Source: a phage. Taken from it: 6,085 bases of DNA. Within the stretch, counting starts at the first letter, position 1; each line of letters begins with the position of its first letter. The stretch lies in the sequence record PX907427.1; one strand, written 5' to 3'. Shown here piece after piece: positions 1-6,085 of this stretch. The position numbers and the translations under genes were made by a program. The notes under the pieces are model-generated. The model was not told where the DNA came from. It did no database searches and saw only the letters and a program-made list of their open reading frames with translations.

Positions 1-26
1 TTGTTGACATTCCCCAAACCCTTATG

Positions 27-65
27 AGACTCTTGCTTCAACGAAACGAAGTTGGAGTCTTTTTT
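27..65 (+). terminator. Candidate intrinsic terminator downstream of gene H in the circular genome (TH-like): bipartite hairpin plus T-tract
   Basis: Seen in sequence: agactc (27-32) pairs with gagtct (55-60); inner stem caac (39-42) pairs with gttg (51-54); followed by ttttt (61-65). Stem is short and only moderately GC-rich, so strength is uncertain. Confidence 0.3.
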
Positions 66-434
66 ATGAAACCTGCTCACCGCCTTTTTCACCCTGTTCT
101 TGGCTCATGGTTGTTTAAGTGCCCCGTTTATGTTCGTTATGAGTCCCTTCATCACGGTCGCCTCATTAAGGTTCGTGCTGTTCGTGATCTTTCCCCTCGT
201 CAGCAGTTGATTGCCAATCCTAAAAATTGCTTTGATGTTGTCATCGCTGAGATTGACGTTACTCGTCTTTCTGTTACTTGGTATGATTTTGAAGCCGAAG
301 AGTATGCTGAGTGTGATTCCGGCACTATGGAGCTTCTTCTTTCTCAGGTAAATTCTGGCGAGGTTATTCGCTCATCTGAAGATCTGTTTGTTGATGTTGA
401 TGATATGGAATGGCTTTATGAAATTGCGGAGTAA
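66..434 (+). CDS. Hypothetical protein (ORF1) in the H-A intergenic region, 122 aa from ATG 66 (136 aa if ATG 24 is used); basic N-terminal half, acidic C-terminal half
   Basis: Open frame 24-434 in the ORF track. GGAG at 54-57 lies 8 nt upstream of ATG 66; ATG 24 has no SD. Codon third positions are strongly T-biased (cgt, gtt, gct, gat, ctt), matching the confirmed phage genes. No homolog recognised by eye. Confidence 0.5.
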   Translation: MKPAHRLFHPVLGSWLFKCPVYVRYESLHHGRLIKVRAVRDLSPRQQLIANPKNCFDVVIAEIDVTRLSVTWYDFEAEEYAECDSGTMELLLSQVNSGEVIRSSEDLFVDVDDMEWLYEIAE

Positions 435-437
435 GTC

Positions 438-527
438 GTGGAAACTGTTATCGGAAAATTTATTGCTCTGGCTGTTGTTGCTCTTATGCTGTATGGAATT
501 TCCCGTTTGATTCGGAGGTTCCCGTGA
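438..527 (+). CDS. Hypothetical small hydrophobic peptide (ORF2), 29 aa, GTG start: METVIGKFIALAVVALMLYGISRLIRRFP
   Basis: GTG 438 preceded by cGGAG (427-431) with a 6-nt spacer; one predicted transmembrane-like segment followed by a basic tail RLIRR; same frame as ORF1, separated from it only by TAA (432-434) plus one codon; its stop TGA (525-527) overlaps the ORF3 start. Short ORF, so chance occurrence is not excluded. Confidence 0.3.
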   Translation: METVIGKFIALAVVALMLYGISRLIRRFP

Positions 528-700
528 AATATTTTAGTTTGGTAGATGAACATTATGCTTACTGCCCTGATACAAGGATTTTGCACATTACTCGTAGTCG
601 TGTTTCTGACCCTCGGTATGAGCGTCGTTTTCTTACTGATGAGGAACATTTTGCACTTTTGGATTGGTTGAAAAATCGTCCAACTTACATTAATTCTTGA
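524..700 (+). CDS. Hypothetical protein (ORF3), 58 aa, GTG start: MKYFSLVDEHYAYCPDTRILHITRSRVSDPRYERRFLTDEEHFALLDWLKNRPTYINS
   Basis: GTG 524 preceded by GGAGG (514-518) with a 5-nt spacer; GTGA start/stop overlap with ORF2; T-biased third codon positions; absent from the supplied ORF track (below its length cutoff or because of the GTG start). Confidence 0.4.
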   Translation: MKYFSLVDEHYAYCPDTRILHITRSRVSDPRYERRFLTDEEHFALLDWLKNRPTYINS

Positions 701-726
701 CAGACCTTTAAAATACCCTCTATATT
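697..726 (+). promoter_or_regulatory. Candidate sigma70 promoter for gene A (pA-like): -35 TTGACA (697-702), 18-nt spacer, -10 TATATT (721-726)
   Basis: Perfect -35 hexamer and 5/6 match to the -10 consensus with 18-bp spacing, about 33 nt upstream of the A start codon; phiX174 has its pA promoter in the equivalent position (established knowledge). Confidence 0.4.
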
Positions 727-755
727 GCCCTCATAGTTTCACTACGAGGGCTTTT
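727..755 (+). promoter_or_regulatory. Hairpin plus T-run immediately upstream of the gene A ATG; terminator-like and/or SD-sequestering 5'-UTR structure
   Basis: gccctc (727-732) pairs with gagggc (746-751), inner tagt/acta pairs (734-737 with 741-744), then tttt (752-755). The only SD-like motif for gene A (GAGGG, 746-750) is in the 3' arm of the stem. Confidence 0.3.
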
Positions 756-3033: not shown

Positions 3034-3057
3034 ATGGGCCTTCGGGCCCTTTAAGGA
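3034..3057 (+). terminator. J-F intergenic hairpin module (GGGCC-TTCG-GGCCC) followed by TTT and the F SD; candidate weak terminator or mRNA-stabilising stem-loop
   Basis: Perfect 5-bp GC stem (3036-3040 with 3045-3049) around a TTCG loop; the 24-nt module atgggccttcgggccctttaagga is repeated exactly at 4364-4387. Confidence 0.5.
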
Positions 3058-3064
3058 AAATTAA

Positions 3065-4360
3065 ATGTCTAATGTGCAAACCTCCGCAGAACGTGAAATT
3101 GTCGATCTCTCCCATCTTGCTTTTGACTGTGGCATGATTGGTCGTTTGAAAACCGTTTCTTGGACCCCTGTTATTGCTGGTGACTCTTTTGAGATGGATG
3201 CCGTTGGTGTACTTCGTCTTTCTCCGCTTCGTCGCGGTCTGGCGATTGACTCTAAGGTTGATTTCTTCACCTTCTATATTCCGCATCGTCACGTTTATGG
3301 TGACCAGTGGATTCAGTTTATGCGTGATGGTATTGATGCAAGTCCTCTGCCTTCTGTTACTTGTAGCCGTTACCCTGACCATGCTGGTTATGTAGGTACT
3401 ATTGTTCCTACGAATAGCCGTATTCCGAAGTTCTTACATCAGAGCTATCTGAATATTTACAATAACTATTTCCGTGCTCCGTGGATGCCTGAGCGCACTG
3501 AGCAGAACCCTTCCAATCTTAATGAGGATGATGCTCGTTATGGCTTCCGTTGCTGCCATCTTAAAAACATTTGGTCTGCCCCTCTGCCTCCAGAGACTAA
3601 ACTGGTTGAGCAAATGGGTATTAAAAGCAATTCCATTGATATTATGGGCCTACAAGCCGCTTATGCGCAGCTTCACACTGAGCAAGAGCGTACTTACTTT
3701 ATGCAGCGTTACCGTGATGTTATCTCCAGCTTTGGCGGTTCAACCTCTTATGATGCCGATAACCGACCGTTGCTTGTTATGCACACCGACTTCTGGGCTT
3801 CCGGTTACGACGTTGATGGTACTGACCAATCTTCCCTTGGACAGTTCTCTGGTCGAGTCCAGCAGACGTTTAAACACTCAGTGCCGCGATTCTTCGTGCC
3901 TGAGCATGGTGTCATGATGACTTTGGCTCTGATTCGCTTCCCGCCTATCAGTCCGTTGGAGCACCATTATCTTGTTGGTAAGTCTCAGTTAACCTATACC
4001 GACCTTGCTGGCGACCCGGCCCTGATTGGTAACTTGCCTCCTCGCGAGATTAGTTATCATGACCTGTTCCGTGATGGTCGTTCTGGCATTAAGATTAAAG
4101 TTGCTGAGTCTATTTGGTATCGTACTCATCCTGACTACGTTAACTTTAAGTATTATGATTTGCAGGGATTCCCATTCCTTGATGATGCGCCTGGTACGTC
4201 TACTGGTGATAATCTTCAGGAGGCTATTCTTGTTCGTCATCAGGACTATGATGCTTGTTTCCAGTCTCAGCAGTTGTCACAGTGGAATAAACAGGCTCGC
4301 TATAACGTTAGTGTTTATCGCCATATGCCTACTGTTCGCGATTCCATTATGACCTCTTAA
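3065..4360 (+). CDS. F: Major capsid protein F, 431 aa
   Basis: Strong match to phiX174 F from memory ([28 protein letters not shown]...FTFY.PHRHVYG). AAGGA (3053-3057) lies 7 nt upstream of ATG 3065. Confidence 0.97.
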
Positions 4361-4363
4361 TTT

Positions 4364-4387
4364 ATGGGCCTTCGGGCCCTTTAAGGA
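4364..4387 (+). terminator. F-G intergenic hairpin module, second exact copy of the 24-nt GGGCC-TTCG-GGCCC element
   Basis: Stem 4366-4370 pairs with 4375-4379, loop TTCG; identical to 3034-3057; followed by the G SD AAGGA (4383-4387) and ATG 4395. Confidence 0.5.
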
Positions 4388-4394
4388 TTTATCT

Positions 4395-4958
4395 ATGTAT
4401 CAGAATTTTGTTACTAAGCACGATACCGCTATTCAGACCTCTCGCTTCTCTGTTACTGGCAATATCACTCCTGTTGCCCCTACTGGTAATATTCCTATTA
4501 TCAATGGTGGTAGCATTACCGCTGAGCATGCTGTTGTTAGTCTTTACGCTAATATGAATGTTGGTACCTCTTCTGATGGTTCTTTCATTGTTGCTATGAA
4601 GGTTGATACCTCTCCGGCTGACCCTAACTGCGTTATCTCTGCTGGTGTTAACCTTAGTTTTGCTGGCACTTCGTACCCGATTGTTGGTATTGTTCGTTTT
4701 GAGTCTGCTTCTGAGCAGCCCACATCTATTGCTGGTAGTCAGATTGAACATTACCCGATTGAAATGTCTGTTGGTTCCGGTGGTGTTTGTTCTGCTCGTG
4801 ATTGTGCTACTGTTGATATTCATCCTCGCACTTTCGGCAATAATGTTTTTGTTGGTGTGATTTGTTCTAGTGCTAAATGGACCTCCGGTCGTGTGCTTGG
4901 TACTATCGCGACTACTCAGGTTATTCATGAATACCAAGTTCTTCAGCCGCTTAAATAA
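4395..4958 (+). CDS. G: Major spike protein G, 187 aa
   Basis: Position after F and conserved blocks versus phiX174 G from memory (VRFES, PRT.GNNV.VG, C-terminal LQPLK). Confidence 0.95.
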
Positions 4959-5092: not shown

Positions 5093-6085
5093 ATGTTAGG
5101 TGCTGTTGTTGGTGGTATTGCCTCAGCCTTAGCTGGTGGTGCCGCTTCAAAATTATTCGGAGGCTCTCAGCGTGGAGTTTCTGTTATGCAGCAAGGTGCC
5201 GAGTCTGCCGGATTGACTAACGGTGGCGGTGCCATTTCTATGGATAATGACCAAGGTATTCAGTCTGCTATTCAAGGCTCGAATGTTCCTCCTGCTGGTC
5301 AGCTTCCTGAGTCTCAGAATTCTGGTGTTATGGCTGATGCTGGTAATATGCTTCGCAATGCTGGAAAGTCCTTGCTTGACGGAACTATTCAGGCTGGCTC
5401 TGATAAAGTTAAACAAGCCCTTATTGATAAGTTGATTGGAGGTAATGATGCCAAAGATCGAGGAAAAGCCACCCGTGATTACTTGGCTGCGGCCTTCCCT
5501 GAGCTCAACCCATGGGAACGTGCTGGAGCTGGTGCTTCCACTGCCGGGTTAGAGTCCTCTGCTCAGAATCAGCAGAAAGAGATGTTGAAGATGCAATTGG
5601 ATAATCAGAAAGATATTGCAAAAATGCAGATGGATAATAATTTGCAGATTGCTGGTATTCAGTCTGCCACCTCTCGTCAAAATACAAAGGATTCTGTTTA
5701 TGCCCAGAATGAGATGCTTCAGTATAATCAACGTGAGTCGCAGGCACGCGTTGCGTCTATCCTCGCCAACACTGACCTTACGACTAAACAAGCCACCCAT
5801 GAAATTATGAGGATGGCCCTTACCCGCGCTCAGGAGACTGGTCAGCATTTGACTAACTCTCAGATTATGGCTTTGGAGAAAAAGGTTTATGCAGAAATTG
5901 GCAAAATTCATCAAGATACTCAAAATTCTCGCTATGGTAGCTCTCAAGTTACTGCCGCAGCGAAAGACGTTACGAATATGATTACTGATGCCTCTTCAGG
6001 CCTTGCTGATTGGGCTTCTCAGCAGTGGAATTCGTTCTTTAAGGATGGCAAGTCCAACGGTATTTCTTTTAATACTAGAAAATAA
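5093..6085 (+). CDS. H: Minor spike / DNA pilot protein H, 330 aa
   Basis: N-terminal glycine-rich hydrophobic segment GGIASALAGGA.SKLFGG and central block KDTRDYLAAAFPELN.WERAGA...IAGIQSATSRQNTKD.VYAQNEML match phiX174 H from memory. AAGGAG (5079-5084) lies 8 nt upstream of ATG 5093. Stop TAA is the last 3 nt of the window. Confidence 0.95.
   Translation: MLGAVVGGIASALAGGAASKLFGGSQRGVSVMQQGAESAGLTNGGGAISMDNDQGIQSAIQGSNVPPAGQLPESQNSGVMADAGNMLRNAGKSLLDGTIQAGSDKVKQALIDKLIGGNDAKDRGKATRDYLAAAFPELNPWERAGAGASTAGLESSAQNQQKEMLKMQLDNQKDIAKMQMDNNLQIAGIQSATSRQNTKDSVYAQNEMLQYNQRESQARVASILANTDLTTKQATHEIMRMALTRAQETGQHLTNSQIMALEKKVYAEIGKIHQDTQNSRYGSSQVTAAAKDVTNMITDASSGLADWASQQWNSFFKDGKSNGISFNTRK

Follow-up and report, generated by a model that had tools for sequence, protein, structure and literature searches.

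Two open reading frames in this genome, ORF1 and ORF2, lie in one frame with only a single stop codon between them, which raises the question of whether they are parts of one gene or two separate genes. The window (the whole stretch of DNA that was analysed, 6085 nt) comprises the entire circular genome of an alpha3-like member of the Microviridae (Bullavirinae, Alphatrevirus). An earlier note had described positions 24 to 527 as one frame that is open but for a single TAA, and we confirmed this description: Frame 0 mod 3 is open over 3–431 and is followed by TAA (432–434), GTC (435–437), and GTG (438–440). The ORF1/ORF2 junction sits in the 758-nt "intergenic" region that runs from the stop of gene H to the start of gene A, a region left unannotated in most alpha3-like GenBank records (alpha3, St-1, WA13, phiK, and others). 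For phage vB_SEC_3, which is probably this phage and is approximately 95% identical to alpha3, only the 10 classical genes (A–H, J, and K) were annotated and the H–A region was called intergenic (PMC13029530). Bases 1–760 of the window are 96% identical to alpha3 and 80 to 94% identical to 13 other alpha3-like phages. The ORF list places the classical genes as follows.

759–2243: gene A
Listed after A and before F: genes B, K, C, D, E, and J
3065–4360: gene F
4395–4958: gene G
5093–6085: gene H

We conclude that ORF1 (66–434) and ORF2 (438–527) are most probably two distinct cistrons, the first two of a three-gene accessory cassette (ORF1–ORF2–ORF3) that fills the H–A region, and we put the probability of this reading at roughly 0.85. 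The features that make up the junction are listed here.

66–434, plus strand: ORF1, 122 amino acids, soluble and β-rich with one long helix; supported by selection, fold, homologues, and Lilleven QBZ71502.1
428–431, plus strand: ORF2 Shine–Dalgarno sequence GGAG, within ORF1 codons 121–122 (GCG GAG) and 6 nt before the ORF2 start
432–434, plus strand: ORF1 stop TAA, the same codon in 30 of 31 sequences and one codon later in L042
435–437, plus strand: intercistronic spacer of 3 nt, GTC in the window; GTT, ATT, ATC, or TTT in relatives; TAA in L042
438–527, plus strand: ORF2, 29 amino acids, (M/V)ETVIGKFIALAVVALMLYGISRLIRRFP, a predicted single-pass membrane peptide with its stop TGA at 525–527

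We compared the junction in 31 distinct sequences including the window; the 30 relatives came from GenBank (15 records, alpha3 accounting for two), IMG/VR (three contigs), Logan or ENA (ten contigs), and metagenomes (two contigs). Exactly one stop separates ORF1 from ORF2 in each of the 31 sequences, and this stop is always UAA and never UGA or UAG. Thirty sequences share the pattern TAT GAA/G NTT GNG GRR TAA NTN ATG (with GTG as the start codon in the window). In the remaining sequence, L042, the junction reads TAT GAA ATG GAA GAT TGC TAA ATG, such that the homologous codon is a sense codon (TGC) and the TAA abuts the ATG of ORF2. In 30 sequences the two ORFs stand 3 nt apart, whereas in L042 they abut (0 nt), and the length of the spacer is fixed while its letters vary. 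The Shine–Dalgarno sequence of ORF2 is GGAG in 28 sequences, GGAA in two, and GGGG in one, and the ORF2 start codon is ATG in each of the 30 relatives and GTG in the window alone.

These comparisons bear directly on the suggestion of the earlier note that ORF1 and ORF2 might have been one gene of about 153 amino acids, with a membrane anchor at the C terminus, until a recent nonsense mutation at 432–434 interrupted it. The arrangement itself, two ORFs in one frame with a single stop between them, is what such an event would leave behind. However, the stop is found in 31 of 31 sequences across the whole clade, even beside an ORF1 allele of only 34% identity, and when codon 432–434 was checked in the relatives, as the note had proposed, none of the 30 had an open junction. 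ORF2 shows no decay and has its own Shine–Dalgarno sequence and ATG. Finally, all 19 homologues of ORF1 end at the same C terminus, ...YE(I/L)(A/V)(E/G), and no fused ORF1–ORF2 homologue extending past ...YEIAE was found among 5.8 billion proteins or 1.84 billion cluster representatives. The idea of a recently interrupted gene is thus refuted, and we give it practically no chance of being correct.

That the two ORFs share a frame carries little weight in this argument. Two ORFs have a prior chance of 1 in 3 of lying in the same frame, so the shared frame by itself is statistically unremarkable and uninformative. It is shared in all 31 sequences because no indel falls within the 18 nt that separate the conserved TATGAA from the ORF2 start, and the two frames coincide because the 6-nt spacing from Shine–Dalgarno sequence to start codon equals a stop codon plus one spacer codon. 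An indel in this interval would harm either the C-terminal strand and end of ORF1 or the Shine–Dalgarno spacing, and the arrangement is therefore simply inherited.

The same observations apply to programmed readthrough, by which some ribosomes would pass the UAA at 432–434 and produce a tail-anchored fusion (ORF1-X-V-ORF2) besides the separate products. Apart from the frame common to 31 of 31 sequences, this proposal can draw on the spacer codon, which, except in L042 (where the spacer is itself the stop), is always a sense codon that has T as its middle base and encodes a hydrophobic residue (V, I, or F), although this is weak evidence because it concerns a single codon. The stop and its surroundings argue against it. 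The UAA is followed by A in 18 sequences, G in nine, T in four, and never by C, and UAA followed by A, G, or U is reportedly an efficient termination context in Escherichia coli. Predicted folds of the junction RNA (395–450 and 400–530) were no more stable than those of shuffled sequences (z +0.32 and +0.65, respectively), and thus no significant structure lies around or after the stop. Moreover, the Shine–Dalgarno spacing and the absence of indels fully account for the conservation of the frame, the structural model of ORF1 is that of a complete domain, and ORF2 retains its own initiation signals (GGAG in 28 of 31 sequences, 6 nt upstream of an ATG or GTG in all 31). With UAA in efficient contexts and a downstream ORF that keeps its own Shine–Dalgarno sequence and start, the readthrough proposed in the earlier note finds no support, and we regard it as highly improbable.

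The A1 protein of the coliphage Qβ is the classical product of programmed readthrough: Its stop is a leaky UGA, after which the extension lacks a start codon and Shine–Dalgarno sequence of its own. ORF1–ORF2 resembles Qβ A1 in having an in-frame downstream extension after a single stop. It differs from A1 in having UAA, in strong contexts, as its stop and a conserved Shine–Dalgarno sequence and ATG for the downstream ORF. There is little to learn here about recoding, the in-frame stop most probably being an ordinary gene boundary. Of the possibilities that the earlier note had raised, two separate products is the one that agrees with the data, since the TAA is always present and ORF2 has its own Shine–Dalgarno sequence and start in 31 of 31 sequences.

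For ORF1, the point to be settled was its start.

54–57, plus strand: ORF1 Shine–Dalgarno sequence GGAG, 8 nt before ATG 66; AGGAG in most relatives, with a ribosome binding site marked at the equivalent place in M25640

The earlier note had ORF1 open from position 24. The open frame is there, but ATG 24 as the true start did not withstand comparison: Relatives carry +1, −1, and −2 indels in the interval from 24 to 65/66, and phiK has ATT at 24–26. From ATG 66 on, the sequence MKPAHRL... is conserved in all relatives. The frameshifting indels at 24–65, together with this conservation, place the real ORF1 at 66–434 (122 amino acids), and the annotation of phage Lilleven uses an equivalent start. 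Within these limits, ORF1 is under clear purifying selection, with a pN/pS of 0.30 in frame as against 1.16 and 1.70 in the other two frames and with 58, 47, and 108 variable sites at the first, second, and third codon positions, respectively. The N-terminal half of the protein is basic (pI 10.3) and the C-terminal half acidic (pI 4.05). AlphaFold2 predicts a compact β-rich domain with one helix (pLDDT 90.8, pTM 0.83), the last strand of which comprises residues 118–121; because the model ends in this strand, ORF1 is predicted to be a complete domain without ORF2.

Searches for relatives of ORF1 led back to the same group of phages. The 19 homologues found among 5.8 billion proteins lie on contigs of 0.6 to 6.3 kb, and each contig that we fetched was that of an alpha3-like microvirus. 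Homologue lengths range from 120 to 154 amino acids, save for one of 211 amino acids (P0019), which matches over its first 87 residues only and probably comes from a chimeric contig. The 154-amino acid forms owe their length to a 32-amino acid insertion after the N-terminal MKP, not to a C-terminal extension. A profile search of the 1.84 billion cluster representatives returned only the ORF1 family itself and one divergent allele, that of L042, which is 34% identical in protein sequence and lies beside nearly identical ORF2 and ORF3. Variation in ORF1 is concentrated in a hypervariable stretch at 282–401 (pN/pS about 0.5, nucleotide diversity up to 0.36), and in the St-1 record ORF1 is frameshifted.

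The L042 allele is also relevant to a more remote version of the one-gene idea, in which a fused, membrane-anchored ORF1–ORF2 protein of the clade's ancestor was split before the known lineages arose, with the two products still forming a complex. The shared frame, the minimal gap, and the co-occurrence of ORF1 and ORF2 in every relative are consistent with such a fission, as is the fact that adjacent coupled genes often encode partner proteins. In L042, however, ORF1 has been swapped as a separate module, and this exchange argues that ORF1 and ORF2 are independent units. There is furthermore no outgroup in which a fused form could be sought: The profile search was empty outside the clade, and Pfam, PHROGs, NCBIfam, the PDB, and BFVD yielded no match. 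We consider an ancient fission very unlikely and favor the reading in which ORF1 and ORF2 are distinct cistrons.

If ORF2 is a cistron in its own right, its product is a small membrane peptide. The earlier note had described a hydrophobic helix with a basic tail, and this description holds: The hydrophobic core spans residues 3–21 (Kyte–Doolittle 19-residue mean 2.15) and is followed by the basic tail RLIRR. We infer membrane insertion from the sequence, and the basic C-terminal tail suggests, by the positive-inside rule, an N-out, C-in orientation. ORF2 is intact, at 28 to 30 amino acids, in 30 of the 31 sequences (the window included); in the other, L039, the contig ends inside ORF2. Additional stops, frameshifts, or loss of the hydrophobic segment in 435–527, which the earlier note had named as evidence against its view of the region, were not seen in the complete relatives. 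Replacements exchange one hydrophobic residue for another or fall among S, A, and T (I/V, F/L, A/V, M/I, and S/A/T). At the C terminus, indels in relatives replace the terminal RRFP with SRTLK, NRTLR, DRTLR, NRILK, or SRT, each directly followed by a stop, and they leave ORF2 closed and the ORF3 start in place, mostly as an ATGA overlap. Gene finders call an ORF2 of 29 to 30 amino acids on several independent metagenome contigs, and the Lilleven record annotates it as QBZ71503.1. ORF2 is so short and so highly conserved that its codon-level signal is ambiguous, the pN/pS being 0.41 for the ORF2 frame, 0.30 for the +1 frame, and 1.5 for the +2 frame. The case for ORF2 as a gene draws mainly on its conserved Shine–Dalgarno sequence, start, and stop, its conservative replacements, and its compensating indels.

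A tblastn search of ORF2 against phages matched alpha3-like genomes only. KdpF and AcrZ of E. coli are small single-pass membrane peptides of about 30 amino acids, and the predicted ORF2 peptide shares with them, and with the microvirus proteins E and K, a size of approximately 30 amino acids and one hydrophobic helix with a basic cytoplasmic tail. The likeness is one of format only, as ORF2 has no sequence similarity to the membrane proteins E and K of the window genome or to entries in PHROG and Pfam.

The pN/pS values of ORF2 call attention to a second open frame over the same DNA.

418–510, plus strand: candidate +1-frame ORF, 30 amino acids, MKLRSKSWKLLSENLLLWLLLLLCCMEFPV, Leu-rich; lies across the ORF1 end, the junction, and the greater part of ORF2

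No forward frame has a stop within 438–507, and the +1 ORF (ATG 418 to TGA 510) is open in all 30 sequences that cover it. It is conceivable, but unlikely, that 418–510 is dual-coding and specifies a fourth, unannotated 30-amino acid peptide across the ORF1/ORF2 junction. Such dual coding, if true, would explain why synonymous change is scarce in ORF2 and would mean that alpha3-like microviruses hide an overprinted gene in a cassette that most annotations treat as noncoding. We likewise consider it unlikely that ORF2 is not the translated frame and that the conservation of 418–527 stems from the +1 ORF or from a nucleic acid element, whether instead of or besides ORF2. Three observations speak for the +1 frame: Its pN/pS is lower than that in the ORF2 frame (0.30 compared to 0.41); among transitions synonymous in ORF2, those observed have milder effects in the +1 frame than those possible (permutation P 0.008); and only two of 13 T-ending ORF2 codons show C, the corresponding figure for the N-terminal part of ORF1 being 41 of 48. 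Against these, the synonymous variability of ORF2 is not significantly below that of ORF3 (P 0.2 overall and 0.09 at T sites), and nucleotide diversity is generally low across the whole 400–2400 region. The +1 ORF has a weak Shine–Dalgarno sequence (GGA), undergoes radical and frequent changes near its N terminus (R to W in six sequences and S to L in 14), and owes its ATG and stop to the ORF1 Tyr-Glu and ORF2 Leu-Ile codons, which force them. ORF2 itself, on the other hand, has a strong Shine–Dalgarno sequence, conservative replacements, and compensating indels, and no significant RNA fold was found. An overlapping element had also been considered on the basis of the low synonymous diversity of ORF2 and was dropped, as this diversity does not differ significantly from that of ORF3 and fits the low diversity of the 400–2400 region.

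The third member of the proposed cassette follows ORF2 without a gap.

514–518, plus strand: ORF3 Shine–Dalgarno sequence GGAGG, inside ORF2 and 5 nt before GTG 524; marked as a ribosome binding site in M25640
524–700, plus strand: ORF3, 58 amino acids, with a GTG start that overlaps the ORF2 stop (GTGA); Lilleven QBZ71504.1

ORF3, like ORF1, is under clear purifying selection (pN/pS 0.17 in frame versus 0.98 and 1.83 in the other frames; 20, 14, and 33 variable sites by codon position), and AlphaFold2 predicts four strands and a C-terminal helix (pLDDT 80). The overlap with ORF2, as GTGA or ATGA, is present in 23 of the 24 sequences with a located ORF3 start, plus L042, L044, and L046; ID32 has a 1-nt gap. 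The argument of the earlier note that the region is or was coding is borne out by the pN/pS values of ORF1 and ORF3 (0.30 and 0.17, compared to 0.98–1.83 in other frames) together with an intact ORF2 in 30 of 31 sequences.

ORF1–3 are already known as hypothetical proteins in a close relative, Lilleven (MK629527). The H–A regions of Lilleven and the window are 93% identical in DNA, and QBZ71502.1, QBZ71503.1, and QBZ71504.1, all three annotated as hypothetical proteins, have the same layout as in the window (369 nt, a 3-nt gap, 90 nt, a 4-nt overlap, and 177 nt), with the difference that ORF2 starts with ATG in Lilleven and with GTG in the window. The three-ORF layout recurs in gene calls made independently on metagenome contigs, and a 1989 alpha3 record (GenBank M25640) marks ribosome binding sites before ORF1, ORF2, and ORF3. 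Homologues of the three ORFs occur in alpha3-like genomes only and always between H and A; for ORF3 there are 12, none with a Pfam domain, the longest contigs being about 6.1 kb. Family searches with ORF1–3 gave nothing meaningful in Pfam, PHROGs, or NCBIfam (in PHROGs, ORF2, the TM peptide, drew only hits with E values of 0.026 or weaker), and neither the PDB nor BFVD held a convincing structural neighbour. We found no trace of the cassette DNA in 5,426 E. coli genomes, and no host or prophage origin can therefore be demonstrated. The papers that our literature search covered included no functional study of ORF1–3. Our best guess is that the cassette is a dispensable host-interaction module, because it is restricted to one clade, ORF1 has a hypervariable patch and is swapped in L042, and the St-1 copy of ORF1 is frameshifted.

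The modest interest of the locus lies in what it adds to the gene map. The usual account of phiX174-type microviruses gives them a closed set of 11 genes. According to the comparative data, the H–A interval holds three conserved, selected genes that most reference records leave out. One of them, ORF1, combines a confident predicted fold that matches no known structure with a hypervariable patch, and another, ORF2, encodes a 29-amino acid predicted membrane peptide. The H–A region thus appears to contain a real but under-annotated accessory cassette in a very tractable phage.

How would the separate cistrons be translated? A ribosome completing ORF1 would stop at the UAA. The final sense codons of ORF1, GCG GAG, would serve as the Shine–Dalgarno sequence for ORF2, whose start lies 3 nt past the stop, and initiation at ORF2 would be a separate event, occurring de novo or through termination–reinitiation. 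The overlap of the ORF2 stop with the ORF3 start (GTGA) would couple ORF3 in the same manner. Translational coupling of the cassette ORFs is what the layout suggests: Stops and starts lie within a few nucleotides of one another or overlap, this arrangement is conserved, and the downstream Shine–Dalgarno sequences lie inside upstream coding sequence. Other microvirus gene pairs are similar to ORF1/ORF2 in having minimal or overlapping stop–start junctions with the downstream Shine–Dalgarno sequence inside the upstream gene. In phiX174, A and C reportedly overlap at ATGA, and D and J at TAATG. In the window, the D/J pair (D stop TGA at 2953–2955, J start at 2957) is nearly as tight as the cassette. 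ORF1/ORF2 differ from the other microvirus junctions in that their 3-nt spacer places them in frame and in that the genes are accessory and confined to one genus.

Transcription of the cassette can be considered in light of three flanking features.

26–65, plus strand: RNA hairpin (26–61) with a U-run (61–65), right after H and before ORF1; conserved
697–726, plus strand: promoter-like site of gene A, TTGACA-18 nt-TATATT (−35 at 697–702, −10 at 721–726), with 11 of 12 consensus matches
727–755, plus strand: hairpin GCCCTC...GAGGGC (727–751) with TTTT, shortly before the ATG of gene A (759)

The upstream hairpin (ΔG −16.6 kcal/mol, z −3.3) has an outer stem, GAGACTC/GGAGTCT, that is kept in relatives, and a pattern scan flags 35–58 with the T-run. 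Together with the U-run, the hairpin resembles an intrinsic terminator or an element that stabilises 3' ends. Its 3' arm pairs with the ORF1 Shine–Dalgarno sequence, and the hairpin may end most late transcripts and, by hiding this sequence, keep expression of ORF1–3 low. We found no sigma-70 promoter for the cassette, a TTGACA at 4–9 having no acceptable −10 hexamer. ORF1–3 are therefore probably carried on late transcripts that pass the hairpin at 26–61 and end at 727–755, and their expression is probably modest. The cassette would then be cotranscribed with the late genes by read-through of the first hairpin up to the second. The second hairpin (ΔG −14.9 kcal/mol, z −2.3), whose stem is compensated in relatives (GCCTTC/GAGGGC and GCTCTC/GAGGGC), is likely the 3' end of the late transcripts that read through ORF1–3. 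The −35 hexamer of the promoter-like site of gene A contains the ORF3 stop TGA (698–700), and this site is conserved in relatives other than NC35.

Variability within the first 900 nt was highest at 282-401 (ORF1 residues 73-112), where nucleotide diversity reached 0.32-0.36 and pN/pS was 0.45-0.56, versus 0.14 in the N-terminal part of ORF1. Because this stretch falls into two or three distinct haplotype blocks, the comparison suggests mosaic exchange or diversifying selection. Further features of the window are:

4-9, + strand: perfect TTGACA directly 3' of the H stop, kept in nearly all relatives
26-65, + strand: conserved hairpin and U-run directly 3' of gene H (dG -16.6, z -3.3)
418-510, + strand, frame 1 mod 3: candidate Leu-rich ORF of 30 aa, MKLRSKSWKLLSENLLLWLLLLLCCMEFPV
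697-755 region, + strand: gene A promoter (-35 at 697-702, -10 at 721-726)
3034-3057 and 4364-4387, + strand: two copies of an identical 24-nt element, ATGGGCCTTCGGGCCCTTTAAGGA, behind gene J and gene F

In a mosaic relative (L042, Logan SRR20337160, positions 820-1475), an ORF1 protein of only 34% identity lies beside an ORF2 and ORF3 nearly identical to those of the remainder of the clade. ORF1 thus seems, from this pattern, to have been exchanged as a module, with the conserved hairpin and the ORF2 start as breakpoints. A variant of ORF1, found in Logan and ENA contigs (L032-L036), is 154 aa long and carries a 32-aa acidic insertion (LTSSEIAVINSAICDLDDSIEEVESLVAS...) immediately behind the N-terminal MKP, with the same C-terminus and junction as elsewhere. 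Two records have a frameshifted ORF1, each by a 1-nt deletion: alpha3 (L005, X60322) at ~193 and St-1 (L007, GQ149088) at ~230. ORF1 is intact in resequenced alpha3 (DQ085810.2), and the deletion in X60322 therefore probably reflects a mistake in sequencing. A genuine deletion in St-1 would mean that this laboratory stock can do without ORF1.

The candidate ORF at 418-510 spans the end of ORF1, the junction and ORF2, and is unbroken in all 30 relatives that cover the stretch. The 1989 alpha3 record (M25640) marks an additional ribosome binding site at ~407-409, which seems to have been intended for this ORF. A permutation in which ORF2-synonymous transitions were milder in the +1 frame gave P 0.008 in favour of coding, versus P 0.2 for ORF2 synonymous variability relative to ORF3; we consider these statistics suggestive and not conclusive.

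The hairpin at 26-65 is likely a terminator or 3'-end stabiliser. Base pairing by its 3' arm occludes the Shine-Dalgarno site of ORF1, and the structure would restrict expression of the cassette. No acceptable -10 hexamer lies 16-18 nt from the TTGACA at 4-9, and no promoter was called at that site.

Transcription from the gene A promoter is predicted to start at ~733, within the 5' arm of a putative terminator hairpin at 727-751; by inference, upstream transcripts could form this hairpin, and promoter-A transcripts could not. In NC35 (L011), a 29-nt deletion equivalent to window 704-732 takes out the -10 hexamer of this promoter along with the downstream hairpin's 5' arm, with TTGACA retained. 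NC35 must, judged from its sequence, express gene A by different means. Finally, each 24-nt element behind genes J and F contains a GC-rich hairpin (GGGCC-TTCG-GGCCC), and the pair presumably arose by duplication of a terminator or stabiliser hairpin.
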